NCBI GenBank assembly: GCA_039586755.1
Contig: JBDHJU010000011.1
Location: forward strand, 14,412 to 78,411
Length of the DNA: 64,000 bases
From: Gemmatimonadota bacterium
Lineage (GTDB): Bacteria > Gemmatimonadota > Gemmatimonadetes > Palauibacterales > KS3-K002
Direction of reading: 5' to 3'
Shown: positions 30,454 through 46,512 of the stretch, piece after piece
Numbering within the stretch: position 1 is the first letter of the stretch
Layout: each line of letters opens with the position of its first letter
Position numbers and translations under genes: made by a program
The notes under the pieces: generated by a model
The model's input: only the letters and a program-made list of their open reading frames with translations
Told to the model about the DNA's origin: nothing
The model's database searches: none

Positions 30454-32145
30454 CTAGACCTCCCAGCCGCCGACCAGGCGCCGCAGGTCCTCGGCGGCGG
30501 CGACGAGCTGGGTCACCGATGCGCTGATCTGCTGAGTCGTCGCCGACTGTTCCTGCACCGCGGCGCTCACGTCCTGGCTGCGAGAGGCGTGCGCCGTCGC
30601 CGTGGCCGTAACCGACTCGACGTGCCCGGCCACCTGCTCGAGCAAAGTCCTGCTGCGCTCCACGGTGGCCAGCGCCTGATCGGAAGCCTGAGCGACCTTC
30701 GCCAGGCCGGCGGCGATTGCGTCGAGGGCATCCTCAGCGCCACGCGCCACGCCCTCGACCTGGACGACCTGGCCTTCGCCCTGCTCCATCTTGAGGACCG
30801 CGGCGCCAACCCGCTCGCGTAGCTTGGCGACGACCTCCTCCACCTCGGTCGCCGCCCCATCGGCCTCCGCGGCCAGCTTGCCGACCTCGTCGGCGACGAC
30901 GGCGAAGCCACGCCCCTCGTGACCGGCGTGTGCGGCCTCGATGGCCGCGTTCAGCGAGAGTAGATGCGTCTGTTCGGCGATCGAGGCGATCCGCCTGACG
31001 AAGCCGGTGATACGGTCGGTGGCGTCCTGCAGCCCCTCGAATTCCAGGGCCGAGTCGTGCACGTACCCTTTGAGGCTCAGCAGAAGGGAGACAGCCTGGC
31101 GAACCGAGTCTTGGCTCTGACCGGTTTGCTCCTGGATCGAGTGACTCAGTTGGCGGTTGCGGTTGGCTTCCGATTCGATCTTAAGCGCTCCGTCCCGTAG
31201 CTCGACCACCGCGGCGGCAGTCTCGCTTAACGAGTCGGCCTGTCTGTCGGCCCCTTCCGATATCTCGCCCATCGCCAGCGCGACCTCATGGGTCGAGGAG
31301 GCGACTTGCTCCGAGATCGATGAAAAGTCGGCTGCCGAAGACGAGATCTGGGAAGCGGTCGAGACCACCTGCCCGGCGACATCGGTCATGCTCGAGGCCA
31401 TCGCGTTGAACGAGAAGCCGAGATCTGCGAATTCCTTTGGCATGCCAGATGTCCCGACCCGGGTACGCAGCTGGCCTTCCCCGAACCGCCTGGCCGCGCC
31501 GACCAGCTCGGCGAGCGGGCGATCGAGGGAGCGGACGGCCAAGTAGGCCAGGCCTCCGCCGATCAGGAGGGCGATGAGCAGGATGCCGAATACGTACCTC
31601 GAACGCTCCAGGGCGCGTTGTTGGAAGGCGGCGGTGGAGTTTGCCAGAACCAGCGACTGTCGCTCGCCGAGCGCCGAAATCAAACCCGCTACCTGTCGTG
31701 CCAGAGGCTGCAGCTCGTCGGCCAGCTGCCGTGCCTGCGTGCGCCGGCCGATGTCGTACAGCGCGTGAGCACGCGCGAACTCGACTTCGAGGGTGGTGAG
31801 TGCCGCGGTCAGTTGCTCGACGAGCAGGACGTCTTCCGCCGAGAGGCCCTCCAAGTCCCGGTAGCGGTTGGCCACATCCTGAGTGCGGCCGGCGAGCTGG
31901 GTAAATTGTCCCTTCTGGTCACGATCGCCGGTGGCCAGATACCCTTCGGCGGCGAAGATCAGATCGAGAACGTCGGCCTGAAGACCGCTACCCCACTCGG
32001 CGACGCGTGTCACCTGATCTATCCCGGCATCGTACTCGTCGGCCAGCCCGTTGAGCGAGCTAATGCCGATCAGCCCACTGGCCAGCAAGCCGATGAGCAG
32101 GGCGAGGAAGGCGCCGGCCTGTCGAGCTTTAATAGTCTGAATCAC
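30454..32145 (-). CDS. Methyl-accepting chemotaxis protein (two TM helices, periplasmic helical domain, HAMP, MA domain)
   Basis: The highly conserved signalling hairpin [40 protein letters not shown] is present. TM helices are [16 protein letters not shown] and [23 protein letters not shown] start in a GTGA overlap with the upstream binding-protein gene. Confidence 0.9.
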
Positions 32146-33281
32146 GAGCCACCCTCTACGCTCACGAATTCGATTGCATCTCCGGAAACACGTCCTACCG
32201 CGAAGCTCTTGCCGATCGGATCGCCATTTTCGTCAAAAGCGATACGCCCGCTCACGCCGGCAAAGGCCTCGCGTTCAGCACCGACCTGCTCGAGGTGTGC
32301 GCGAATGCTCGTTCGGTCGAAGCCGGCCTCGCTGACCGCCCGTGCCAGCAGCATCAAGGCGTCATAGCCCAGGGCCGCGAAGTGATCGGGCGGATCCCCG
32401 TGCCGGGCCGTGTAGGCGTCGACGAACTCGCGGCCGCCGCCACCCGGAGCGTTGGGGTGGTAGAGCAAGCCGATGTAGGTCCCCTCGAAGGCCGCTCCCT
32501 GGCCCGCGAGGCCCAGGATCCCGTCTCCACCCACGAACGGTGCGTCGATTCCCATCTCGCGCGCCTGGCGGATCACGGGTGCGGCGCCGACGTCGGTGCT
32601 GCCGATGAATATCAGGTCCGGTCGTGCAGCGCGGACTCCCATCAGATAGGCTTCGAAGTCCGTAGTGCTCCCCTCGATAAATGGGTACTCCTCAACCAGG
32701 ACACCGCCGCCGGCCGCGTAGGTCCTGCCGAACGCATCTCTGAGACCGCGGCCGTACGGGTCGTTGGCGTAGATGATCGCCGCCTGCGTGCCCAACTCGC
32801 GCAGCGCGAACTCGGCCAAACCGGCGGCGTTGACCACGTCGCTCGAGCAAACGCGGAAGATCCACTCGCCGGCATCGCTGATCTCAGGGCTCGTGGCGGC
32901 GGGCGATACGGTGGGAAGGCCGCGGTTGTAGATCGGAGCCGCGGCGAGCGTGGCGCCCGAATTGACGTGCCCGACCACCGCTAGCACCGTGGCGTCATTG
33001 TATAGCCGGTCAGCCACCGTCACCGCCTGGCGCGTGCTGGCGCTGTCGGTCAGTGCTACGAGCTCGACCGTTCGCCCTTCGATTCCGCCCGCCAGGTTGA
33101 GCTGGTCTCGGGCCAACTCGGCGCCGCGGAGCGTGTGTGAACCGATGAACTGCTCGAGAGGCGCCGCGACGCCGAAACGCACGGTGTCGGCGGGGCCTTC
33201 TCCGCCGCAGGCGGTGGCGGCGAGGCTGAGGGTTGCCAGCCCTAGGAGCGACGCGCGTATCCGCGAGTATCGCATGAGCAT
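32142..33281 (-). CDS. Periplasmic solute-binding lipoprotein, Leu/Ile/Val-binding (type I PBP, LivK-like) family
   Basis: Lipobox [54 protein letters not shown]...VGHVNSG is the typical Peripla_BP_6 pattern. Confidence 0.75.
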
Positions 33282-33704: not shown

Positions 33705-35156
33705 TCAACTTTCCGCCGGTCCGACCCGCTGAGCGGAAGTGAACTCGGCGACGGCGGCCTCAGGGGTCTTTACGATCAGGAAGTAGGCGAACAGCAAGCT
33801 GGGCCACAGGTGGAGTGCTAGTCGGTGCCTCGACGTGCCCATGTGCCAGGCGAGATCGTACGGCGTCACGACGTATACAAACAGATAGGCCGCGAGGACC
33901 AGGCTCAGCGTGACCAGCATGGTGACCACACTCTCTCGCTCTATACTCTTTCTTCGCCAGCCAACGGCCAGCAGGTAGAGCGCCAGCACGAGCGGCGCCG
34001 CCACCAGCCAGCCGCTGAGGTTCAGAAAGCGCTCTCCGAACGACACGAGCACGAACCAGATTCGGCCGGGATCCGTCAACCGTTCGATGATGTCGGCGAG
34101 GCGCAGTGAAGCGAGTAAATCGTTGGGGGGCGCGACCGTCCACCTGAACACCACGATCAGAGTCAGCAACGGGGCCAGCCCCAGTAACAAGGTGCCCTGA
34201 CTGCGAAGGGCCCGGCCCCAACCTCGCAGGTGTGCGACGACCAGCAGTCGGCCAACCAGCAGAGCGAGTACGAAGATCAGACCCTCATTCTTTGTCCAGG
34301 CGGCAAGGCCCGCGGTCAGTCCTGCCAGGGCGATGAACCCTCCGCCTCCGTCCTCGACCGTGTCGGCGAGGGCCAGCACAACGAAGGTCGCCAGTATGAA
34401 GAATGCCAAAGGGACGTCGGCGTACTGATTCGCCGCCTGGTAGACCAGCGTGTTACAAGAGAGCACTAAGATGCCGGCCAGCAGGCCCTGGCCAGAGCTC
34501 CGCAACGAGGTGAGGGCCCCCAGCAGCAGGAAGGCCGTGGCGAGGGCGAAGAGCAGGCCCAGCAGAATCGGCACGATCTGCGGCTCGGACCCGATGAAGC
34601 TCCAGGCGCGTGCGGTTGCCCCCGGTACCAGTAGAGGATAGTCGGCGTGGGTCCAGGTCCCCAGCAGATTGGAAAAGGCATCCCTCCAATGGTCAGCTCC
34701 ACGGAACAGGAATCGGGCACGCAGGTTCCAGATGCTTGCGGCGTCCCAGCCACCGTGTGGGTAGGTTGCCGAACGGTAACCGAAGCTGAGGGCTGCTGCG
34801 ATGAGCGAGACGGCGAACCCCGGAACCAGCAACCAGGAGACGAACGGTGACGCGCTCGGGCGATCGACGGGCCTGCGGCTAGCGGTCAGCGCTCCGCTCC
34901 GCGCCCGGCGCAGGGCGAAGCCGATCAGCAGCGCCAGGCCCGCGACCTCCATCACGAAATACACTTTCGCGGAGCCGAGTCCGACCAGCCCGACAAAGAA
35001 ACCCGCTGAAGACAGACCCAGCCCCAGACCGACCCCCAGCGCCAGCATTGTTGGCATTTCTGTCATCGACACACGCGCCCGCGGCCAGAACGCGAAGAGA
35101 AACAGAGCGCCTCCGATGACGGAGAGGATAATTGCGAGGAGCAGCTCCGAAGTCAT
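33705..35156 (-). CDS. Polytopic membrane protein, candidate GT-C (ArnT/PMT, GT39-like) glycosyltransferase
   Basis: 483 aa with at least 10 predicted helices and overall topology resembling ArnT-type enzymes. No catalytic motif was verified by eye. Confidence 0.4.
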   Translation of the reverse strand: MTSELLLAIILSVIGGALFLFAFWPRARVSMTEMPTMLALGVGLGLGLSSAGFFVGLVGLGSAKVYFVMEVAGLALLIGFALRRARSGALTASRRPVDRPSASPFVSWLLVPGFAVSLIAAALSFGYRSATYPHGGWDAASIWNLRARFLFRGADHWRDAFSNLLGTWTHADYPLLVPGATARAWSFIGSEPQIVPILLGLLFALATAFLLLGALTSLRSSGQGLLAGILVLSCNTLVYQAANQYADVPLAFFILATFVVLALADTVEDGGGGFIALAGLTAGLAAWTKNEGLIFVLALLVGRLLVVAHLRGWGRALRSQGTLLLGLAPLLTLIVVFRWTVAPPNDLLASLRLADIIERLTDPGRIWFVLVSFGERFLNLSGWLVAAPLVLALYLLAVGWRRKSIERESVVTMLVTLSLVLAAYLFVYVVTPYDLAWHMGTSRHRLALHLWPSLLFAYFLIVKTPEAAVAEFTSAQRVGPAES

Positions 35157-35713
35157 CGCTCCTCTCGTTCGAGCACTAGGAGACCGTCACCCAGATCGCG
35201 CCGCACGATCAGTCCCTCGGGGTACTTCCTGTCGAAACCCGGCTCACCGGTCGAGTCGGCGGGGTAGTTGCCGACTACGATCGGGAGATCGGTGTCTCTG
35301 AGGACGATGAGCGGCGCCAGCGAGTACTGGGTGAGGAAATAGTCCCGCATCGCCTCCGCGCTGGTGAACGAGCCGCCGCTCAAGCCGTCGCTGGCGTAGC
35401 CCACGATTCCGCGTGGCGGCAGATGCTCCCGCAATCGCCGCAACCGCTCGTCTTGCTCGCCTGTCCGCTGATCGCCGGCCGGGGCCGCGAACCGCGAGTC
35501 GCGATGTAGCTCGACGGTTTGGTGGAGCGCTTCCACGCTTCCGGCCAGCGCCAGGAAGACGGTAGTTGCCAAGGCGGCTCGGGCCAGCAGAGGTCGGTGG
35601 GTTCGCATACCCGCCAAGATACCGGTCATGCCTCGTTTCAGCCACGAAAGGGGGCGCGCCATGGAACCCGGAACCGGGGCGCGGGCGTTGACTTCGGGCA
35701 GGCCAGGCTGCAT
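35153..35713 (-). CDS. Hypothetical membrane-anchored or secreted protein coupled to the GT-C-like gene
   Basis: 4-nt overlap with the downstream gene. The hydrophobic anchor LLARAALATTVFLALAG suggests the real start is Met36 at 35608. I recognise no family. Confidence 0.35.
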   Translation of the reverse strand: MQPGLPEVNARAPVPGSMARPLSWLKRGMTGILAGMRTHRPLLARAALATTVFLALAGSVEALHQTVELHRDSRFAAPAGDQRTGEQDERLRRLREHLPPRGIVGYASDGLSGGSFTSAEAMRDYFLTQYSLAPLIVLRDTDLPIVVGNYPADSTGEPGFDRKYPEGLIVRRDLGDGLLVLEREER

Positions 35714-35750
35714 GCTCAGCCAGTTGTGGCCAATTCGCGGAGGGATTCCA

Positions 35751-36758
35751 ATGCTAGCTCGGAGTTTGCCATGGAAGCGGCGCGCCGTTCAGCCGGCGCG
35801 GAGGTTGGCTCGGTGGCGCTGCCTCGGCCTGCTTGCGGTCCTCCCCGTCCTCGTCAGCGTCCCGCAGGACGGCTTCGGCCAGTACGAGAATATCGTCCTG
35901 CCCGTCGACACGATCGAGTACCTGTTCCGCTACGAGGAGTTCCGGATAGCGCAAATGAGGGACACGCGCTTCGAGGGGGACAGGACGCAGGTCGTCGTGC
36001 TGGCGTTTCCCGGCTACATGCCGCTACGCATCAAATGGGCGGCGGCTCCCAGGGGCGCCGACTCGTTCAACAACAAGCCCCGTTTCGAGATAGGGGTCTA
36101 CGAGCTGCAGAAGCTGTTCTTGGATGAGGAGGACTACGTTGTTCCTCCGACCGTGCTCCGCAGCATGACGTTGGATGAGTATCCTCGGTCGGATGCCGTG
36201 ATCACGACCTTCCGAGGCATCGATGCTGTGCTTGTTCTCATGCAGTACTGGCTGAGCCAGGTCACCGACGAAGACGTCTACGACGAGGACAGAATCGAGG
36301 ACGATTCGCTGTACGCCCGGCACCTGGCCGACATGAACATCCTGACCTATCTGGTCAGGCACGCGGACGCCAACCCGGGCAACATGCTGATCTCGACGGC
36401 CGGTAACGCCAGGGTCTTCGCCGTGGATAACGGCGTCTCGTTCGGCGACATCAGCGATCGGCCCGACGACTGGCGGAAGATGCGCACCGAGCGTCTGCCG
36501 CAGGGCACGGTGGAGAGGCTGCGGGGCATTAGCGAGGAAGATCTGCACCAGACGCTGGGCGTGTTGGCCCAGTTCGAGGTCCGAGGCGGCCGACTGGTGC
36601 AGGTCGAGCCCACCGAGAACCTGGACCCGGGGAACGGCGTGCGTCGCAAGGACGATGTCGTTCAGTTGGGGCTGACCAGACGTGAGATCGGGAGAGTCTT
36701 TGGACGCCTGGAGGATCTGCTGAAGGACATAGACGAAGGGAAGTACGATATTTTCTGA
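35751..36758 (+). CDS. Secreted atypical kinase-like protein (PI3/4-kinase-like catalytic signature), paralog 1
   Basis: ATG at 35751 lies 6 nt after GGAGGG; the ORF is open from 35628. Signal-like N-terminus RWRCLGLLAVLPVLVSV. Candidate Lys in PLRIKWAAAP, catalytic-loop-like VRHADANPGNMLI, and DFG-like VFAVDNGVSFG. 335 aa. Confidence 0.5.
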   Translation: MLARSLPWKRRAVQPARRLARWRCLGLLAVLPVLVSVPQDGFGQYENIVLPVDTIEYLFRYEEFRIAQMRDTRFEGDRTQVVVLAFPGYMPLRIKWAAAPRGADSFNNKPRFEIGVYELQKLFLDEEDYVVPPTVLRSMTLDEYPRSDAVITTFRGIDAVLVLMQYWLSQVTDEDVYDEDRIEDDSLYARHLADMNILTYLVRHADANPGNMLISTAGNARVFAVDNGVSFGDISDRPDDWRKMRTERLPQGTVERLRGISEEDLHQTLGVLAQFEVRGGRLVQVEPTENLDPGNGVRRKDDVVQLGLTRREIGRVFGRLEDLLKDIDEGKYDIF

Positions 36759-36765
36759 GCAGGGT

Positions 36766-37773
36766 ATGGAGCCCGCAGGGATCGCAGTGTTGTATCGGGT
36801 CGCACCGGGGAGGCGGCAGCTGGGCGCACGGAACGGTCTGCTGTTGTCACTTTGCGTCCTGGCTGTCCTGGGTCGTCCGCTCGACGTCTTCGGCCAGTAC
36901 GAGAACTTCATTCTGCAGGTCGACACGCTCGAGATGCTATTGCGTGACCGTGAATTTTGGATCGCGCAATTCGCCGACAACCGTATCGTTGGAGACCGGA
37001 CACAGCGCGCGGTCCTGGTGTTTGAAGATTTTCCGCCCATAAACGTCAAGTGGGCGGCGGCGCCCAGGGGCGCCGACTCGTTCAACAACCGCCCGCGCTT
37101 CGAGATGGCGGTCTACGAGCTGCAGAAGCTGTTCCTGGACGTAGAGGACTACGTCGTGCCGCCGACGGTGGTCCGTGCGATGCCGCTGGACGAGTACCCG
37201 CGGAAGAACGCCGTGCAGACGACGTTTCGCGGCATAGACGTCGTCTTGGTTCTCTTGCAGTACTGGCTGAGACAGGTCACCGACGAAGACGTCTACGACA
37301 GGGACCGCATAAGGGAAGATTCGCTGTACGCCCGGCACCTGGCCGACATGAACATCCTGACGTATCTGGTCAGGCACGCGGACGCCAACCCGGGGAACAT
37401 GCTGATCTCGACGGCCGGCAATGCCAGGGTCTTCGCGGTGGATAACGGCGTCTCGTTCGGCGACATCAGCGATCGGCCCGACGCCTGGCGGAAGATGCGC
37501 ACCGAGCGTCTGCCGCAGGGCACGGTGGAGAGGCTGCGAGGCATTAGCGAGGAAGATCTGCTCCAGGCGCTGGGCGTTTTGGCTCAGTTCGAGGTGAGAG
37601 GTGATCAACTGGTCCAGGTAGAGCCGACCGAGAACCTGGACCCGGGGAACGGTGTGCGTCGCAAGGACGATGTGGTTCAGTTGGGGCTGACGACCCGTGA
37701 GATCGGGAGAGTCTTTGGACGCCTGCAGGATCTGCTGGAGGATATAGACGAGGGGAAGTACGAAATCTTTTGA
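36766..37773 (+). CDS. Secreted atypical kinase-like protein (PI3/4-kinase-like catalytic signature), paralog 2
   Basis: 335 aa, colinear with paralog 1. The VRHADANPGNMLI and VFAVDNGVSFG motifs are identical, and the N-terminus LLLSLCVLAVLG is hydrophobic. Confidence 0.5.
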   Translation: MEPAGIAVLYRVAPGRRQLGARNGLLLSLCVLAVLGRPLDVFGQYENFILQVDTLEMLLRDREFWIAQFADNRIVGDRTQRAVLVFEDFPPINVKWAAAPRGADSFNNRPRFEMAVYELQKLFLDVEDYVVPPTVVRAMPLDEYPRKNAVQTTFRGIDVVLVLLQYWLRQVTDEDVYDRDRIREDSLYARHLADMNILTYLVRHADANPGNMLISTAGNARVFAVDNGVSFGDISDRPDAWRKMRTERLPQGTVERLRGISEEDLLQALGVLAQFEVRGDQLVQVEPTENLDPGNGVRRKDDVVQLGLTTREIGRVFGRLQDLLEDIDEGKYEIF

Positions 37774-37784
37774 GTGGGAGACGT

Positions 37785-39095
37785 ATGAGGCGAAGGGGCT
37801 TGACGGCAATCGGCATCGCCGCGTTGGCCGTCCCGTTGCTGGCGGCCGCTGGGTCGGCGGTCATTCTCGATTGCGGGCCGGCGCGGTCCGCTCCCCAGGA
37901 GGAAGCCGGGCGGTCCAAGATCCGTGTCGACGGCGAGTACGGCCTCTGGGTGCGGGAGATCGGTGACTCGTTGCAGATGCGCTGGTTTACACGGGAACAC
38001 GGTGTGGGGTACCTGGAAGTGGTCGTCGACGGCGGAGCGGTCTACGGGGTCGAGACCGAGCCCAGCACGGCCCACGCCGCGTCGTTTCCTAAGCCGGCCG
38101 CACCCGAGCTGACGCTGCGCTACGGTGGTCGCGGGGATCCGCAGGACGCGCACGAGACGGTCATCTACTTCGACCTGCCGCAACGCCCGATCGAGACAGA
38201 GTTCGAGGGCGTCGACACGCTCTTCGTCGTCGGTGATGTCCACGGTCAGTACGACACGCTCACCGCGCTGTTTCGCAACGCCGGCCTCATCGACGGCGAC
38301 GATCGCTGGACCGGCGGCCACAAATGGATCGTGCTGCTCGGCGACCTGGTCGATCGCGGGCCCGATGTCCACAAGGTCTTGTGGTTTCTGTACGAGCTGG
38401 AGCGCGACGCGACGCGACAGGGCGGCCGCGTCCAGGTCCTGTTGGGCAATCACGAGATCATGGCGATGAGCGACGACCCCCGGTACGTGTCGGCGAAAGA
38501 GAGGCTGATCGCCCAGAATCACGGCGTCGCATACTGGCAGCTGTTCGACCCGCGAAGCTCGATTCTCGGGAAGTGGCTTGCATCGAAACCGGCGCTGATC
38601 AGAATCGACAGGGTGGTACTAGCGCACGGTGGTGTCGGTCCCGAGTACATGGCCTACTCGATCCCCGAGTTCGACGACTCGCTGGGGCTGTTCATGAGCG
38701 AGGAGTGGTTCTACCGCATGGCCGACAGCACAGCTGCTTACACCCCACTGGACTCGGTGACGCTCTTCCGTCGCATCGACTTCTTCTTCGACGAAAACAG
38801 CGTCTTCTGGTATCGGGGCTACATGCATACCGATACCCTCTATACCGATAGCCTCGCGTCAGTACTCCAGCAGGTTCTCGAGCGGCACGACAGCGACCTC
38901 CACGTGGTCGGCCACACGGCGGTCGATTCGATCCAGACAATGTACGATGGATCTTTGGTCGCTGTGGACCTGAAGGAAGCGGCAACGGAGATGCTCCTCC
39001 TGGTACGCAGTCCCGAGAGTTACGAGCGGTATCGCTATACTTTGTCGGGGCCGCCGCAGCCGCTCGAGATCCCCGTCGCCGCCGGCGGCGGGTAG
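37785..39095 (+). CDS. PPP-family metallophosphatase, Shewanella-like phosphatase (SLP) type, with an N-terminal signal-like segment and an extra N-terminal domain
   Basis: LFVVGDVHGQYDTL, LLGDLVDRGPD, LLGNHEIMAMSDDPRYV and LAHGG are the PPP motifs GDxHG / GDxxDRG / GNHE. N-terminus MRRRGLTAIGIAALAVPLLAAAG. The ORF is open from 37770, overlapping the upstream stop; GGGAG precedes the ATG at 37785. Confidence 0.75.
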   Translation: MRRRGLTAIGIAALAVPLLAAAGSAVILDCGPARSAPQEEAGRSKIRVDGEYGLWVREIGDSLQMRWFTREHGVGYLEVVVDGGAVYGVETEPSTAHAASFPKPAAPELTLRYGGRGDPQDAHETVIYFDLPQRPIETEFEGVDTLFVVGDVHGQYDTLTALFRNAGLIDGDDRWTGGHKWIVLLGDLVDRGPDVHKVLWFLYELERDATRQGGRVQVLLGNHEIMAMSDDPRYVSAKERLIAQNHGVAYWQLFDPRSSILGKWLASKPALIRIDRVVLAHGGVGPEYMAYSIPEFDDSLGLFMSEEWFYRMADSTAAYTPLDSVTLFRRIDFFFDENSVFWYRGYMHTDTLYTDSLASVLQQVLERHDSDLHVVGHTAVDSIQTMYDGSLVAVDLKEAATEMLLLVRSPESYERYRYTLSGPPQPLEIPVAAGGG

Positions 39096-39245: not shown

Positions 39246-41417
39246 ATGTACCCTTCTGCGGTGGGGCGCGTTCTTCTACTCCTGTCACTGGCGAGCGGGG
39301 CGATCACCCCGGCACAGACCCAGGAGCCGCTTCGTCCCCTGCGCACCGATGATCCGCCGGTGATCGATGGCGACCTGGCAGACCCGGTGTGGCAGGAGGC
39401 CCCCCAGCTTTCCGAGTTCATGACGTGGGCGCCGGACTACGGCAAAGAGATGCTCGGCGCGACAACGGTATACATGGCTCACGATGCGTCGAACCTCTAC
39501 TTCGCCTTTCGCTCCTTCGACGCCGAGCCCGAGAAGATCAAGACGTCGATCACCAGCCGGGACAACATATGGCGGGAAGATTGGGTCGCCATCAACCTCG
39601 ACTCGTTCAACGATCAGCAATCGCTCTACGCGCTTTACATCAATCCGCACGGCATCCAGGCGGACAGCCGCTATGCCGCAGGCCACGAGGACCGCAGCTT
39701 CGATCTGGTCTGGTACAGTGCCGGCCGAGTGGACGAGGCCGGGTACACCGTCGAGGTGCAGATACCGCTCAAGAGCATCCGCTACGCCGAGGGAGACTCG
39801 GTCAGCATGGGGGTCATCTTCGAGCGCCACATCAGCCGCCGCTCGGAGTATGGCAGTTGCCCGCCACTCGATCCGAATCAGCAGGAGTGGCTCACTCAGA
39901 TGGCGCCGATGGTCTTCCACGACCTCGAGCGCTCGAAGCTGTTGGAAGTGATTCCGGCCGCGACTTACGCGTACAGCGAGGCGCTGGAGGAGGGCGGGCT
40001 GGCCACTGACGAGCGGCAGGGCGAGCTCAGCCTGACCGCCAAATACGGCGTCACCTCGGACCTGATCTTGGACGGTACCTACAATCCCGACTTCAGCCAG
40101 GTCGAAGCCGATGCCGGGCAGGTAGATGTCAACCTGCGCTACCAACTCTACTTTCCCGAGAAGCGGCCGTTCTTTCTCGAGGCGCGCGAGAACTTCACCG
40201 TCGCCGCCACCGCATCATCGGAGAGGGATCCCGTTCAGTCGATCGTCTACACCAGGACGATCGTCGATCCCGTCGCCGGGTTCAGGCTGTCGGGCAAGCT
40301 CGGTGCCAAGAACACCGTGGCCTCGATCTACGCGGCTGACCAGCTGCCGGAACCCGAGCCTGCGTCGGGCGCCGGTTACGCCCACTTCCCCATACTGCGG
40401 TACAAGCGGACGCTAAACGAGGACAGCTACGTCGGGGGTATCATCGCCGGCCGTGAACTGCGGCATCAATACAACCGTTTGGCAGGAGTCGACGGTCAGC
40501 TGCGTGTCAGCGATTCCAGCATGCTCGGGTTTCACGGCCTCTTCTCTTGGGCCCGGCAGAGTCTCGCGACCCTGGCGGTAGAGGGACGGTCCCTCAGTGC
40601 ACAGTACTCGCACGGGACCCGCGACCTCGACTACGGCCTGGCCGTGAACGACGTCTCAGAGGATTTCCGTGCCGAGATGGGTTACGTGATCCGTACGGGG
40701 ATACTCCAGTTCAGTGGCCTGCTCAAACCGAAGATCTACCCGAACTCGAACGTCCTGCGACGGATCGACATCGAGCTTTTCTCGGCTCAGACCGAGGACA
40801 GGTTCAGCGGGCTATGGGAGACGTTCAATCACGTCTCGATGCTGAACCGCCTTTGGGGAAGCCTGACCCTCAAGCTGAAATACTCGTATTCGACTGAGAT
40901 CTTCCTCGGTCAGCGATTCCGGACCGGTGGGTTCCACGTATTCGGCGGCGGCCAGTTTACCCGGCAGCTCTATTTGGGAGTCCTCTACAGGAACGTCGGG
41001 TCGATCTTCTACTCGGAAGACCCGTATCAGGGTCGCAGCAACGTGTTGCGGGCCGACCTCGTCTATCAGCCGTCGGACAAACTGCGTTCCGAGCTGAGCT
41101 TCACTTACAGTGACTTCTATCGGGAGTCGGACGGACAGAAGATCTATAACTACCCGATCGTTTGGGGAAAACTGACTTACCAGTTCAACAAGTATCTCTT
41201 CCTGCGCGGGATCCTCGAGTACAACGACTTCCGGGATGAGATGCTCACCGACCTCTTGGTTTCCTTTACCTACATTCCGGGCACCGTGATCCACATCGGC
41301 TATGGCGCTCTCTTGGACAAGATCGAATGGAGGAACGGCGAATACGTGGAGGGTGACAGGTTCCGCCAGACCCGGAGGCGATTCTTCTTCAAGGCGTCGT
41401 ATCTCTGGCGGATCTAG
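39246..41417 (+). CDS. CBM9-like plus DUF5916-type large secreted/outer-membrane protein
   Basis: Signal peptide VLLLLSLASGAITPAQTQ. DDPPVIDGDLADPVWQEAPQLSEF...NLYFAFRSFD is a CBM9-like N-terminal domain. A long beta-rich region follows, including GTYNPDFSQVEADAGQVDVN, which the second copy shares as NPDFGQVEADPAVVN. Confidence 0.6.
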   Translation: MYPSAVGRVLLLLSLASGAITPAQTQEPLRPLRTDDPPVIDGDLADPVWQEAPQLSEFMTWAPDYGKEMLGATTVYMAHDASNLYFAFRSFDAEPEKIKTSITSRDNIWREDWVAINLDSFNDQQSLYALYINPHGIQADSRYAAGHEDRSFDLVWYSAGRVDEAGYTVEVQIPLKSIRYAEGDSVSMGVIFERHISRRSEYGSCPPLDPNQQEWLTQMAPMVFHDLERSKLLEVIPAATYAYSEALEEGGLATDERQGELSLTAKYGVTSDLILDGTYNPDFSQVEADAGQVDVNLRYQLYFPEKRPFFLEARENFTVAATASSERDPVQSIVYTRTIVDPVAGFRLSGKLGAKNTVASIYAADQLPEPEPASGAGYAHFPILRYKRTLNEDSYVGGIIAGRELRHQYNRLAGVDGQLRVSDSSMLGFHGLFSWARQSLATLAVEGRSLSAQYSHGTRDLDYGLAVNDVSEDFRAEMGYVIRTGILQFSGLLKPKIYPNSNVLRRIDIELFSAQTEDRFSGLWETFNHVSMLNRLWGSLTLKLKYSYSTEIFLGQRFRTGGFHVFGGGQFTRQLYLGVLYRNVGSIFYSEDPYQGRSNVLRADLVYQPSDKLRSELSFTYSDFYRESDGQKIYNYPIVWGKLTYQFNKYLFLRGILEYNDFRDEMLTDLLVSFTYIPGTVIHIGYGALLDKIEWRNGEYVEGDRFRQTRRRFFFKASYLWRI

Positions 41418-41719: not shown

Positions 41720-42964
41720 TTGGATATCAAGCGGGAACCGCGGCCGAAGACAAAGCGCTGGGTTTACCTTGGCGTTGGGATCGTCGCGGTCGTCGTGATC
41801 ACGGTGGCCCTGGGTCGGTTGGGGCCTGCCGCCCCCGGCGTCGACCGGTCGAGTGTTTGGACCGACGTGGTAAAGCGGGGCGAGATGGTGCGGCAGGTCC
41901 GTGGCCCGGGGAACCTGGTCTCGGAGCAGGTGCGCTACATCGCGGCGCTGACGGCCGGGCGCGTCGAGCGTAGGTTTGTGGAGCCCGGGGCCGTGGTGGA
42001 TAGTGCGACGGTGCTGCTGGTGCTCAGCAATCCCGACGTCGAGATCCAGGCGCTGGACGCGCAGCGTCAGCTGACCGCGGAAGAAGCCCGCCTCGTGGAT
42101 CTGCGGACGCGGCTGGAGAACCAGCGGCTGAGCCAGGAAGGGTTGGTGGCGACGGTCCACGCCCAGTACCAGGAGTCGATGCGAAACGTCGCCCGGGACG
42201 AAGAGCTCGCGGGAAGAGGCCTGCTCTCGGATATCGACCTGCAGACCTCCCGCGACAGGGCGGAGGAACTGGAGAAGCGGTGGGACATCGAACAGCAGCG
42301 GTTGGCCGTGATGACTGACGCGGTGGAGACCCAACTTTCGGCGCAACGGGCCCAGGTCGAGTGGCTGCGCTCGATCGCCGTGTTCAAGGAAAACCTTGTA
42401 AGCTCGATGATAGTGGTGGCCGGTGTGTCGGGTGTGCTGGCCGACCTGCAGTGGGAACCAGGCCAGTGGGTGAGGCCGGGGGACGAGCTGGCGCGGATCG
42501 TACAGCCCGGCCGGCTGAGGGCGGAGGTGCGGATCCCCGAGACCCAGGCACGCGACGTGGCGATCGGGCAGCTGGCGCTGATCGACACGCGCCCCGACAC
42601 GGTTATGGGGCGAGTGATGCGGATCGATCCCGCGGTTGCGGGCGGCAGCGTGACCGTCGATGTGCGGCTCGAGGGCGAGTTGCCGAAGGAAGCGCGTCCG
42701 GATCTAAGCATCGACGGAACCATCGAGATCGAGCGCCTGACCGATGTCCTCTACGTGTCGCGGCCGACGTACGGGCAGCCGAACAGCTTGGTCGGGCTGT
42801 TCAAGGTCGTCGAAGACGGGAACGCCGCCGTGCGGGTCAGGGTGCGACTGGGCCGCGCATCGGTCAATACGATAGAGATCATTGAAGGCTTGATTGAGGG
42901 TGACGAGGTTATCGTGAGTGACATGTCGACCTGGGACGAGTACGACCGGGTACGACTGCGGTAG
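41720..42964 (+). CDS. HlyD/MacA-family periplasmic adaptor (membrane fusion protein)
   Basis: N-terminal anchor WVYLGVGIVAVVVITVA, a long coiled-coil segment, and beta-barrel/lipoyl-like parts (GEMVRQVRGPGNLVSEQVRYIAA...VLSNPD...V). TTG start. Confidence 0.75.
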   Translation: MDIKREPRPKTKRWVYLGVGIVAVVVITVALGRLGPAAPGVDRSSVWTDVVKRGEMVRQVRGPGNLVSEQVRYIAALTAGRVERRFVEPGAVVDSATVLLVLSNPDVEIQALDAQRQLTAEEARLVDLRTRLENQRLSQEGLVATVHAQYQESMRNVARDEELAGRGLLSDIDLQTSRDRAEELEKRWDIEQQRLAVMTDAVETQLSAQRAQVEWLRSIAVFKENLVSSMIVVAGVSGVLADLQWEPGQWVRPGDELARIVQPGRLRAEVRIPETQARDVAIGQLALIDTRPDTVMGRVMRIDPAVAGGSVTVDVRLEGELPKEARPDLSIDGTIEIERLTDVLYVSRPTYGQPNSLVGLFKVVEDGNAAVRVRVRLGRASVNTIEIIEGLIEGDEVIVSDMSTWDEYDRVRLR

Positions 42965-42994
42965 TGAACTCGAAACGAGAGCGAAGACAGAACA

Positions 42995-43732
<738 letters not shown>

Positions 43733-43807
43733 AGAGATCCCCTTTCTAGGCACGCTGCTCCACTAGGTGGATTCGTGTGCCCGGAGGGACCGTAGGAAGG
43801 CATCCGC

Positions 43808-45181
43808 GTGAGCCAACCGTCCGCTTGCTACCGCGTACTCATCGCCGATGACCAGCCCGACGTGCTGCAGGCTCTTCGCCTGCTGCTGAAGGGCGAGGGC
43901 TTCGAGATCGAGACCGCCACTTCACCGGCCGGCGTCCTGTCGGCAGTCGAGGCGCAGGACTTCGATGCCGTCCTCCTCGACCTCAATTACAGCCGCGATA
44001 CGACCTCGGGCCGCGAAGGCCTCGATCTGCTGGCCACGGTTCAGGTGCTCGACGACACGCTGCCCGTCATCGTGATGACCGCTTGGGCTAGCGTGGAAAC
44101 GGCGGTGGAGGCGATGCGGCGCGGCGCCCGCGACTACGTACAGAAACCGTGGGACAACGCGCGCCTGCTCACCACCTTGAGCACCCAGGTCGAGCTGGGA
44201 CGGGCGCTGCGCAAGGGTCAACGGCTAGAGCACGAGAACCTGCGACTGAGAAGGCAGGAGCTGCCCGGACTGATCGCCGAATCGCGCGCGATGCAACCGG
44301 TGCTCGAAATCATGGAGCGGGTCGCCGCATCGGATGCCAACGTCCTGATCAGCGGTGAGCACGGGACCGGCAAGGACGTGGTGGCAAGGTGGCTGCACGT
44401 GGCCTCCGATCGGGCGGCCAAGCCACTCGTTACGATAAACGCTGGCGGCATCTCCGAGACGCTGTTTGCCAGTGAACTGTTCGGGCATGTGAAGGGCGCG
44501 TTCACCGACGCCAAGTCCGACCGCATCGGCTGCTTCGAGCTGGCACATAGCGGAACACTCTTTCTGGATGAAATTGCCAACGTCCCCATCCAGCAGCAGG
44601 CCAAGCTGTTGCGTGTGCTCGAGACCGGCGAACTACAACGCGTCGGTTCATCGAAGACACGTCAGGTAGATGTCCGACTCCTATCGGCCACCAACGCGAA
44701 CATCTTCGAAGAGGTCGCCGAGGGGCGGTTCCGCGAGGACCTTCTATATCGGCTCAATACGGTTGAGATCGAGCTTCCTCCGCTGCGCGATCGGCGCGAG
44801 GATATTTCCCTACTGGCCAACAACTTCCTCCTGCGGATGGCCGAGCGGTATCGCAAGCCAGTTGAGCGCTTCGAGGCCGACGCGATGCAGGCGTTGCTGG
44901 AGCACACGTGGCCGGGCAACGTGCGTGAGCTCGAGCACGTGATCGAGCGCGCCGTCTTGATGGCGCGTGGAGCGGCGATCCGAGCCTCCGATTTGGGGCT
45001 GCGTTCGAGAAGCGACGGGGCCGCGCAGCTCGAGGAGATGAAACTGGAGGAGGCGGAGCGTTATCTTATCCAGAGGGCGCTCGAGCGGCATGGCGGCAAT
45101 GTGAGCCAGGCGGCTGCGGCGCTCGGCCTCAGCCGCAGCGCCCTATACCGGCGCCTCCAGCGCTACGACCTTCCACATTAG
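43808..45181 (+). CDS. Sigma-54-dependent NtrC-family response regulator (REC + AAA+ + Fis-type HTH)
   Basis: REC domain (LIADDQPD...AVLLDLNY); AAA+ domain with GEHGTGKDV and a GAFTDA variant of the GAFTGA loop; FLDEI; GNVRELEHVIERA; C-terminal HTH GNVSQAAAALGLSRSALYRRLQRY. Confidence 0.9.
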   Translation: MSQPSACYRVLIADDQPDVLQALRLLLKGEGFEIETATSPAGVLSAVEAQDFDAVLLDLNYSRDTTSGREGLDLLATVQVLDDTLPVIVMTAWASVETAVEAMRRGARDYVQKPWDNARLLTTLSTQVELGRALRKGQRLEHENLRLRRQELPGLIAESRAMQPVLEIMERVAASDANVLISGEHGTGKDVVARWLHVASDRAAKPLVTINAGGISETLFASELFGHVKGAFTDAKSDRIGCFELAHSGTLFLDEIANVPIQQQAKLLRVLETGELQRVGSSKTRQVDVRLLSATNANIFEEVAEGRFREDLLYRLNTVEIELPPLRDRREDISLLANNFLLRMAERYRKPVERFEADAMQALLEHTWPGNVRELEHVIERAVLMARGAAIRASDLGLRSRSDGAAQLEEMKLEEAERYLIQRALERHGGNVSQAAAALGLSRSALYRRLQRYDLPH

Positions 45182-45195
45182 AGCAGAAACGGCGG

Positions 45196-46512
45196 ATGAT
45201 AAGATTGCGCCACGAACAGCGCATACTCGTTATGACGCTGATCGCCGGGCTACCGGGTACGCTCGTGGCGACGATCTTGCTCTGGATAGGAGATTTCTCG
45301 ACCAAAGTCCAATGGACCTTCACGCTGTTGGTCGCCTCCATCTGGTTGGGGTACGCGTTCGCGGTGAGGGAGCGCGTCATCCGTCCTCTGCAGACACTCT
45401 CGAACATGCTCGCCGGTTTACGCGAGGGCGACTATTCCATCAGGGCAAGGCGCAGTAGTCCGAGAGGCCCGCTGGGACTCGCCATGCTGGAGGCGAACAT
45501 CCTCGGCGAAACGCTTCGCGAGCAGCGGCTCGGGGCCCTGGAGGCGACGGCGCTCTTGCGTCGCGTGATGGAAGAAATCGATGTGGCGGTCTTCGCGTTC
45601 GATGCGGAAGGCCGACTGCGGCTCGCCAATCGAGCTGCCGAGCGCCTGCTGGATCAGCCGCTGGAAAGGCTGATCGGCCGCGATGCGGGTTCGCTGGGCC
45701 TCTCCCGACCGCTGGAGGAAAATCCCGGGACCATGGACCTGACCTTCCAGGGCCGCCTGGGTCGCTGGGACGTGCGGCAGACGACGTTCCGTCAGGGCGG
45801 CGTGCCCCACCGGTTGTTAGTGCTGGCCGACCTCAGCCAGGCGCTGCGGCAGGAGGAGCGCCAGGCCTGGAAGCGCCTCATCCGTGTGTTGAGCCATGAG
45901 ATCAATAACTCGCTGGCCCCGATCAAGTCGACGGCGGAGAGCCTACTGAGCCTGACGCGTCGTGAGCCGAAGCCCGCCGACCTGGACGAGGACGTGGAGC
46001 AGGGGCTCAAAGTGATCGCCGGCCGCTCAGAGGCGCTGAGCCGCTTCATGGCCTCGTACGCCGACCTGGCGCGGCTGCCGCCGCCGGAGCTCGGTCCGGT
46101 CGAGGTCGGGGCCTGGGTTCGACGGATCGCCGAGCTCGAGACGCGCCTGCCGGTCACCGTCCGTGACGGGCCCGAACTGACGATCCTCGCCGATGGAGAC
46201 CAGCTCGACCAGCTGCTCATCAACCTGGTCAGGAACGGCGTGGATGCGGCGCTGGAAACGGGCGGCGCCGTGGAGGTTGGCTGGCGACGTAACGGGGGTA
46301 CGCTGGAAGTGTGGGTGCGGGATGAGGGTCCCGGGCTGTCCGAGACCAAGAATCTGTTTGTCCCCTTCTACAGCACCCGGCAGGGCGGTTCGGGGATCGG
46401 CCTCGTCCTCAGCCGCCAGATCGCCGAGGGCCACGGCGGGACCCTCGAGTTGCATAATCGGAGGGACCGTAGCGGCTGCGTTGCCATGCTGACGTTGCCG
46501 GAGGGTAGCTAG
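45196..46512 (+). CDS. Sensor histidine kinase (two TM helices, HAMP, PAS-like, HisKA, HATPase)
   Basis: H-box RVLSHEINNSLAPIKS, N-box LLINLVRNGVDA, and G-boxes RDEGPGL and GSGIGLVLS. It lies immediately downstream of the NtrC-type regulator. Confidence 0.85.
   Translation: MIRLRHEQRILVMTLIAGLPGTLVATILLWIGDFSTKVQWTFTLLVASIWLGYAFAVRERVIRPLQTLSNMLAGLREGDYSIRARRSSPRGPLGLAMLEANILGETLREQRLGALEATALLRRVMEEIDVAVFAFDAEGRLRLANRAAERLLDQPLERLIGRDAGSLGLSRPLEENPGTMDLTFQGRLGRWDVRQTTFRQGGVPHRLLVLADLSQALRQEERQAWKRLIRVLSHEINNSLAPIKSTAESLLSLTRREPKPADLDEDVEQGLKVIAGRSEALSRFMASYADLARLPPPELGPVEVGAWVRRIAELETRLPVTVRDGPELTILADGDQLDQLLINLVRNGVDAALETGGAVEVGWRRNGGTLEVWVRDEGPGLSETKNLFVPFYSTRQGGSGIGLVLSRQIAEGHGGTLELHNRRDRSGCVAMLTLPEGS

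Follow-up and report, generated by a model that had tools for sequence, protein, structure and literature searches.

A 64,000-nucleotide stretch of DNA from a Gemmatimonadota bacterium (GenBank assembly GCA_039586755.1, contig JBDHJU010000011.1; the whole stretch is referred to below as the window) carries, at positions 35751-39095, three consecutive genes for two kinase-like paralogues, K1 and K2, and a metallophosphatase of the PPP family (hereafter PPP). On balance, we lean towards the view that these genes encode an extracytoplasmic phosphorylation module. K1 and K2 are predicted to carry Sec-type signal peptides, and PPP an export leader of its own. Across Gemmatimonadota, and in a few further phyla, kinase and phosphatase are kept as a pair, and at least three lineages encode the two as a single polypeptide, predicted to be exported. 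Judged by its predicted structure, the kinase fold is closest to those of the secretory-pathway Fam20 kinases and the type II phosphatidylinositol 4-kinases (PI4KII).

The finding challenges two views, namely that kinase/phosphatase signalling in bacteria is cytoplasmic and that the periplasm is free of ATP, and, for regulated phosphorylation beyond the cytoplasm of bacteria, offers a specific candidate that can be put to the test. If true, the module would represent a bacterial counterpart of Golgi-lumen phosphorylation, with a periplasmic ATP economy, and the Fam20/PI4KII branch of the kinase superfamily would extend to a bacterial housekeeping role. It would also supply a first function, or working hypothesis, for the NTT-HEAT-cNBD proteins of free-living bacteria, a question open since 2017 (PMC5381601). 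Moreover, it offers a bacterial setting for the Shewanella-like phosphatases (SLP), whose eukaryotic relatives occupy organelles of bacterial origin.

The same kinase-plus-phosphatase logic is found in Hanks pairs (PknB-PstP) and in secreted kinases (CtkA, CotH and the Legionella effectors). In the Hanks pairs, the catalytic domains are cytoplasmic and the phosphatases of the PP2C type. The effector kinases act within host cells, whereas the enzymes described here are predicted to be Sec-exported in free-living bacteria, together with a PPP. What would be new here is a kinase/phosphatase pair relocated outside the cytoplasm. In the literature on periplasmic kinases, bacterial Fam20/PI4KII homologues and SLP operons, no description was found of this family, of its pairing with an SLP or of its link to NTT-HEAT-cNBD proteins.

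The genes and their predicted features (ORF, open reading frame; RBS, ribosome-binding site) are as follows.

35751-36758, + strand: K1, kinase-like, 335 aa from ATG (ORF call, RBS, Pfam PF00454 match)
35751-35879, + strand: K1 Sec signal peptide, predicted, residues 1 to ~43 (n/h/c-region layout)
36357-36434, + strand: K1 catalytic loop RHADANPGN and Mg-binding VDNG, residues 203-228 (family alignment)
36766-37773, + strand: K2, kinase-like paralogue of K1, 335 aa (ORF call)
36766-36894, + strand: K2 Sec signal peptide, predicted, residues 1 to ~43 (leader layout)
37372-37449, + strand: K2 catalytic loop and VDNG, residues 203-228 (family alignment)
37785-39095, + strand: PPP metallophosphatase, Shewanella-like, 436 aa (ORF call)
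37785-37859, + strand: PPP hydrophobic leader, residues 1 to ~25, signal peptide or signal anchor (homologue leaders)
37917-38168, + strand: PPP N-terminal beta-sandwich, residues ~45-128, with an invariant GEYGLW (absent from the Shewanella enzyme)

A preliminary description of this DNA, made from the letters alone, had given two genes for proteins of 335 aa and a phosphatase gene spaced by 7 and 11 nt, and the ORFs lie exactly there: all three genes are on the + strand, with 7 nt between K1 and K2 and 11 nt between K2 and PPP. An RBS (GGAGGG, 35739-35744) is located 6 nt 5' of the ATG of K1, and another (GGGAG, 37776-37780) 4 nt 5' of that of PPP. A terminator-like hairpin was sought in both the K1-K2 and the K2-PPP gaps, and none was found. 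The short gaps, the RBSs and the absence of intergenic terminators indicate that K1, K2 and PPP are, as predicted from the DNA, a single transcription unit. The G+C content is even across the region (about 62-65%), and the long antisense ORFs over the three genes were set aside as the usual shadows of GC-rich coding DNA.

The kinase-like family

The motifs on which a kinase had been proposed, VRHADANPGNMLI and VFAVDNGVSFG, are present in both K1 and K2. A conserved lysine context, given earlier as R/NIKWAAAP, is also present, except that K2 reads NVKWAAAP rather than NIKWAAAP. Across the family, the catalytic loop takes the form RHxDxNxGN, the Mg loop is VDNG and the Lys-Glu pair is K95/E113. 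Among 229 aligned members, K95 is conserved in 221, E113 in 219, D206 in 228, N211 in 226 and D226 in 225. Since this phosphotransfer set is nearly invariant, the proteins are predicted to be active protein-kinase-like enzymes.

A structural comparison of the kinase model placed the Hydra Fam20 xylosylkinase (5xom) at the top, with a score of 15.9, followed by Fam20C orthologues (14.9-15.1) and PI4KII alpha (14.8-15.0). Actin-fragmin kinase scored 11.4; CtkA, HipA, CotH and the PI3K/PIKK proteins 8-10.6; and Hanks kinases 6-7. Foldseek returned the same top matches. Thus, in the predicted structure, both a two-lobed PI3K/PI4K-type fold and a Fam20-type atypical kinase fold could be recognized, and the kinase fold claimed in the preliminary description was recovered in this Fam20/PI4KII form. 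Sequence identity to these structural matches does not exceed 18%. Legionella MavQ (a kinase) and WipA/WipB (phosphatases) were, like CtkA, among the structural matches of the module's proteins.

Sequence searches gave a weaker signal. With K2 alone, a search of Protein Data Bank (PDB) sequences returned no match; with the family profile, a marginal match to Vps34 (E = 0.11) reached the QLGLT helix. As these searches are weak, the fold assignment rests on the predicted structure. The Pfam profile PI3_PI4_kinase (PF00454) was matched by K1 at 28.5 bits and by K2 at 30.0 bits, just above its cut-off of 27.1, in one stretch per paralogue (residues ~162-250, aligned to positions 108-186 of the 241 in the profile). 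Precomputed matches to it are lacking for many relatives; most relatives fall under the cut-off, and the fusion proteins described below score 16-20 bits. Fam20C (PF06702) scored 12.2 and 11.9 bits (E = 0.15-0.18) against a cut-off of 26.8. The resemblance to SCO1664-type kinases, proposed earlier, was abandoned: the corresponding profile (TIGR03843) gave 13.1 and 17.0 bits against a cut-off of 172.4. Relationships to ABC1 and OspG were likewise dropped, their profile scores being sub-threshold only. By sequence criteria, K1 and K2 therewith appear to stand outside every described family, despite the Fam20/PI4KII neighbourhood of their fold and with PF00454 only borderline.

The family itself is large. 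K2 is matched by 826 clusters at 90% identity. Among 1.84 billion representatives, the family profile finds 662 clusters at the 50% level, and for 250 of these E is <= 1e-30. The relatives are nearly all unnamed or annotated as "hypothetical", and the majority come from Gemmatimonadota. A search with a Gemmatimonas-type member gave 1463 matches, the best 120 of which include no named isolate.

Two known groups deserve comparison. Fam20B (a xylosylkinase) and Fam20C (the Golgi casein kinase) are, like the proteins described here, atypical kinases that bear a signal peptide, and work in an extracytosolic compartment with ATP that first has to cross a membrane. They are only 14-16% identical to this family, which is bacterial, is ~290 aa long in its predicted mature form, has a C-terminal helical/beta extension of its own and is paired with a PPP. 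PI4KII alpha and beta share with K1 and K2 the PF00454 match over the catalytic and Mg loops and, through Vps34, the weak match to the QLGLT helix; the xDNG Mg-binding motif and D-x4-N loop of K1 and K2 presumably resemble those of PI4KII as well. However, only ~80 of the 241 profile positions are covered, the helical, C2 and palmitoylation elements are absent from the kinases here, and this family is predicted to be exported, whereas all characterised PF00454 members work at the cytosolic face. Nor are phosphoinositides an established substrate in this phylum.

Such remoteness from characterised kinases (<=18% identity even to the structural matches) is what one would also expect of kinase-fold proteins with another nucleotide-dependent chemistry, such as the AMPylation or glutamylation of SelO and SidJ, or of ligand-binding pseudokinases. 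Precedents of this sort are given in the references of PMC7948968. Nonetheless, almost no member departs from the catalytic Asp and Asn, the DxG-like Asp or the Lys-Glu pair. The constant partner of these proteins, even in fused form, is a phosphatase, so that the product is likely to be a phosphate ester. We regard a different chemistry, or a pseudokinase role, as quite unlikely.

Over 325 aa, K1 and K2 have 80% of their residues in common, with identity distributed as a mosaic. At the nucleotide level, they share 45% in the leader, 67% over codons 44-100, 81% over codons 101-180, 95% over codons 181-260 (where the catalytic loop and VDNG of K2 lie) and 89% over codons 261-335, and synonymous third-position identity climbs from 0.61 to 0.90. 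This pattern suggests that the C-lobe was homogenised, probably by gene conversion, or else a divergence concentrated in the N-lobe, and the combination of diverged N-lobes with a homogenised C-lobe suggests two specificities served by one phosphatase. The leader of K1 is like those of single-copy orthologues, and its N-terminus aligns with those of P0013 and P0014. Tandem duplication of the kinase is uncommon, yet recurrent (L046, L049 and L074).

The phosphatase, gene linkage and predicted export

In PPP, the motifs GDVHG, GDLVDRG and GNHEIMAMSDDPRYV are all found, as the preliminary description had reported. The only Pfam match is to Metallophos. Against PDB sequences, residues 124-406 match the cold-active protein-tyrosine phosphatase of Shewanella (PDB 1v73/2z72) with E = 2e-38, and 20 diverse homologues all keep D151/H153, D187/R191, N222/H223, H281 and H377. 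Together, the PDB match and the invariant motifs confirm the SLP assignment made earlier: to judge by its sequence, PPP is a catalytically intact Shewanella-like PPP with an added domain, and its closest characterised relative is the Shewanella PPI/CAPTPase, not a member of another PPP clade. Shared with the latter (Shelph/SLP) are GDxHG, GDxxDRG, GNHE and an SLP-type insert after GNHE (PMC535813). The Shewanella enzyme, PPI, is a Tyr-specific phosphoprotein phosphatase (PMC535813). What sets PPP apart from Shelph/SLP is its genetic coupling, sometimes by fusion, to an exported kinase, and an additional, strongly conserved beta-sandwich of Fn3/Ig type at residues ~45-128. An extra domain had been noted before, at about 130 aa; the domain is real, but comprises ~85 aa behind a hydrophobic leader.

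To place the pair in its genomic context, one genome per GTDB species was scanned, 218 relatives were found and 80 loci were fetched. Synteny was counted by tblastn, with the loci having enough downstream (71) or upstream (56) sequence as denominators. A full-length PPP is directly 3' of the kinase, on the same strand, at 34 of 71 loci, and lies within 3.5 kb of it at 40. With 662 clusters in the family and adjacency at 34 of 71 loci, the pairing of the kinase with a PPP is far beyond chance.

In three clusters (P0121, P0125 and P0308) the two enzymes are a single polypeptide, in the order signal peptide, kinase, beta-sandwich and PPP, the leader of the PPP having been lost. P0121 is present in two assemblies (L082, 181-2337; L083, 174-2330), preceded by the C-terminus of a histidine kinase of the operon type. 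The synteny expected under the preliminary description is thus borne out by adjacency and by three independent fusions. Another composite protein, P0218 (644 aa), consists of a signal peptide, a Beta-lactamase2-family domain and a diverged kinase domain.

Some loci depart from the simple pair. At L015, L017, L022 and L053 (also L013, L019 and L071), the exported kinase and a convergent PPP are separated by a Hanks Ser/Thr kinase with a membrane anchor (Pkinase, E = 2e-39). At L006 (1307-7734) and L007 (1338-7765), the kinase has no PPP and is preceded by ORFs of 1106 and 1036 aa, which by eye resemble methyltransferase-type and helicase-type proteins, as in a restriction/defence island.

A Sec-type layout was recognized by our heuristic rule in 89 of 96 full-length kinase relatives: a positive N-terminus, an uncharged stretch of 10-26 residues (median ~16), a small-residue site and then a conserved QD(A/S)N. 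K1 conforms, with a positive n-region, a 15-residue uncharged h-region and a small-residue c-region; we infer cleavage before QYEN. All PPP homologues examined have a hydrophobic leader ahead of the conserved GEYGLW, and those of L042, L054, L058 and L062 have lipoboxes. The signal-like segments of the preliminary description therefore hold under this rule for both enzymes. Its reading of a signal-like PPP N-terminus holds as well. The RRR it noted there is no conserved twin-arginine motif: homologues do not keep it and carry Sec-type or lipobox leaders, and Tat export is accordingly unsupported.

The hydrophobic segments might instead be anchors, with the catalytic domains in the cytoplasm as an ordinary membrane-associated kinase/phosphatase pair. 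The heuristic judgement of the leaders, made with no dedicated predictor, and the long h-region of the window PPP (~23 residues) would allow for this. Such a topology is, however, hard to reconcile with the shortness of the uncharged stretch in the kinase leaders, flanked by positive charges before and the acidic QD after, with the lipoboxes of some PPPs or with P0218, in which the kinase domain is placed behind a signal peptide and a domain of a periplasmic enzyme class. The kinase::PPP fusions, moreover, shed the second leader, which is expected only if both domains share one exported compartment. We consider cytoplasmic catalytic domains extremely unlikely.

Export could also mean secretion of effectors or toxins against competitors, predators or hosts, rather than action on the producer's own envelope. 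Known secreted bacterial kinases are mostly effectors, CtkA, MavQ and WipA/WipB are among the structural matches, and an HlyD/ABC export pair lies downstream in the window. On the other hand, free-living Gemmatimonadota of soils and sediments have kept the family widely and by vertical descent, its genomic links are to a transporter and to regulators of housekeeping type, and some of its PPP partners are lipoproteins and so kept on the cell. There is no immunity gene and no match to a defence system; in the window module, PADLOC detected no anti-phage defence system. A role as secreted effectors is very unlikely.

Proposed ATP supply and phosphorylation cycle

At 31 of 56 loci, a ~1030-aa protein with TLC (ATP/ADP transporter), HEAT and cNMP_binding (cyclic nucleotide-binding) domains is encoded upstream of the kinase on the same strand, and in 25 of these 31 a histidine kinase lies in between. 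The full arrangement is a five-gene operon, found in L018 (3375-10170) and 30 other loci (e.g. L011, L012, L028, L062 and L077). In L018, the first three genes are as follows.

L018, 3375-6458: NTT-HEAT-cNBD
L018, 6455-6949: receiver-only response regulator
L018, 6946-7890: soluble HisKA/HATPase kinase

The exported kinase and then the exported PPP follow the histidine kinase, and the genes of the operon overlap or abut. The linkage is kept in rearranged orders, such as kinase-PPP-NTT-histidine kinase in L016 and kinase-NTT-PPP in L021, and at seven loci the NTT gene is followed directly by the kinase gene. In P0145 (L081, 5718-8132), a TLC domain is fused in frame to a kinase domain, with a hydrophobic segment (486-504) kept at the junction.

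The TLC, HEAT and cNMP_binding architecture of the upstream gene is identical to that of NTT-HEAT-cNBD proteins, an established family that is common among free-living bacteria and whose function is unexplained (Major, Embley and Williams 2017, PMC5381601). No function of these proteins and no link to a kinase or phosphatase was reported there; here, they are tied to an exported kinase and PPP and to a two-component pair.

We propose that the exported kinases would phosphorylate an envelope target, periplasmic or on the cell surface, with a nucleotide as phosphate donor, and that PPP would take the phosphate off again. The target could be a protein, a glycan or a lipid. K1 and K2 would differ in specificity through their N-lobes while sharing one phosphatase. 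In many relatives, the periplasm would receive its ATP from an adjacent ATP/ADP exchanger of the NTT type, controlled by cyclic nucleotide and a two-component pair; in the clade of the window, no such transporter gene adjoins the kinase genes. There is an analogy in the Fam20 kinases of the Golgi/ER lumen, which depend on ATP import through carriers. That ATP-using enzymes can work in the periplasm is illustrated by Lig E, an ATP-dependent ligase targeted there (10.64898/2026.03.22.713542). In its full form, with an NTT exchanger exporting ATP, a Sec-exported Fam20/PI4KII-like kinase using it on an envelope target and a PPP reversing the reaction, the scheme is put forward tentatively, and is less likely than not. 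With similar reserve, ATP-dependent periplasmic phosphorylation might be carried by Gemmatimonadota, some Marinimicrobia, KSB1 and metagenome-assembled genomes (MAGs) labelled Bacteroidota; the taxonomic labels of MAGs outside Gemmatimonadota are possibly unreliable.

Several points weigh against an extracytoplasmic module and its supply of ATP. The evidence is computational throughout. The signal peptides were judged by a home-made heuristic rule and not by SignalP. The kinase model is of moderate quality at the catalytic and activation loops (pLDDT, the predicted local distance difference test score, is 56-62 over residues 200-250). About half of the loci, those of Marinimicrobia included, have no adjacent PPP, and a kinase::phosphatase fusion is as compatible with a pathway of successive steps as with a reversible switch. 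It is commonly accepted that the periplasm contains no ATP. A TLC gene was sought across the 64-kb window and none was found, so the ATP-supply step is drawn from the relatives. P0145 comes from one Logan contig only and may be an assembly or frameshift artefact; a crude hydropathy count left the number of transmembrane segments of the NTT undecided, and a topology argument from P0145 is only suggestive. Finally, the characterised NTTs are nucleotide importers, and the NTT-HEAT proteins are uncharacterised (PMC5381601).

A further recurrent element is a set of exported PF01663 genes near the kinase, all on the - strand in L018 (1094-3121), L010 (1478-3007), L031 (4637-6196) and L037 (4638-6230). 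In L018, the Phosphodiest-family gene lies divergently upstream of the operon. In Marinimicrobia (e.g. L063, 8145-9749), smpB-/tyrS-like genes stand between PF01663 and the kinase, which may be clade synteny only. The recurrence of genes for exported nucleotide pyrophosphatases/phosphodiesterases (NPP) may reflect extracytoplasmic nucleotide turnover.

This raises the question of nucleotide or organophosphate scavenging, in which PPP and the nearby NPP would hydrolyse external phosphoesters, the NTT would import nucleotides and the kinase-like protein would bind or process nucleotides. It would agree with the import direction of the characterised NTTs and with PF01663 genes adjoining the operon in L010, L018, L031 and L037 and lying near the kinase in Marinimicrobia. 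Against it stand the intact and conserved Lys/Glu/Asp/Asn/Asp phosphotransfer set, the nearest relative of PPP, which is a protein-tyrosine phosphatase, and the intervening smpB-/tyrS-like genes in Marinimicrobia; no phosphate-starvation (Pho) genes were seen nearby. Scavenging is an unlikely account of these genes.

A biosynthetic role requires fuller weighing. Here, a phosphate would be placed transiently on a periplasmic glycan or lipid intermediate and later removed by PPP, much as xylose phosphorylation by Fam20B gates glycosaminoglycan assembly. The best structural match, 5xom, phosphorylates a glycan (xylose), the lipid kinase PI4KII scores equally well and Pfam puts the catalytic segment in PI3_PI4_kinase; a polytopic protein that is weakly GT-C-like is conserved divergently in the window's clade, and kinase::PPP fusions suit sequential enzymes. 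Yet the fold match to Fam20C, a protein kinase, is nearly as good, no GT-C profile reaches its cut-off, the linkage of the GT-C-like gene is confined to 7 loci, and most other loci have signalling neighbours, namely a histidine kinase, a response regulator, a cNMP-binding domain or a Hanks kinase. Transient phosphorylation of a glycan or lipid is conceivable in view of the likeness to Fam20B/PI4KII, the fusions and the GT-C-like neighbour of the one clade (PMC7948968), but we hold a biosynthetic module to be rather improbable. For the extracytoplasmic phosphorylation module, the signalling neighbours favour, as far as gene context can indicate, a regulatory role, and we infer writer/eraser signalling.

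Genes flanking the operon

The neighbouring genes in the window are as follows (MCP, methyl-accepting chemotaxis protein).

30454-33281, - strand: MCP with HAMP domain and periplasmic binding protein (upstream flank, ordinary)
33705-35156, - strand: polytopic membrane protein, weakly GT-C (PMT/ArnT-like), ~11 hydrophobic segments
35153-35713, - strand: p186, 186 aa, one N-terminal hydrophobic segment, divergent from K1, same orientation as the GT-C-like gene
39246-41417, + strand: CBM9_1 and DUF5916 gene, signal-like N-terminus
41720-46512, + strand: HlyD-type adaptor, ABC ATPase, sigma-54 activator response regulator and PAS histidine kinase (downstream flank, ordinary)

The p186 gene and the GT-C-like gene are conserved as divergent neighbours only in the nearest clade (L001-L005, L008 and L009; 7 loci), and their membership in the module is uncertain on this pattern of conservation. 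The profile libraries searched gave no family match for p186. Its true start is probably internal (MRTHRPLL, as in L003); with that start, the divergent intergenic region ahead of K1 would measure ~140 nt instead of 37 nt. A firm GT-C assignment of the polytopic protein was rejected: PMT scored 16.2 bits against a cut-off of 22.7 and NF047440 (LA_3751/LA_3752) 21 bits against 200, a PDB sequence search was empty, and only the polytopic topology fits GT-C.

Two neighbours had been taken as hints of an envelope substrate. For the GT-C-like gene, the linkage stands in the nearest clade, but is absent beyond it, and the assignment is under all cut-offs. For the DUF5916 gene, the hint was given up, as the gene is not syntenic elsewhere. 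The DUF5916/CBM9 gene was likewise excluded from the module; elsewhere it has a single match, in L074, with 27% identity. The HlyD/ABC/NtrC genes found downstream in the window come after PPP in L004 too, where the DUF5916/CBM9 gene is missing. Absent from the closest relatives, the DUF5916/CBM9 gene looks like a lineage-specific insertion in the window or, conversely, like a loss in those relatives.

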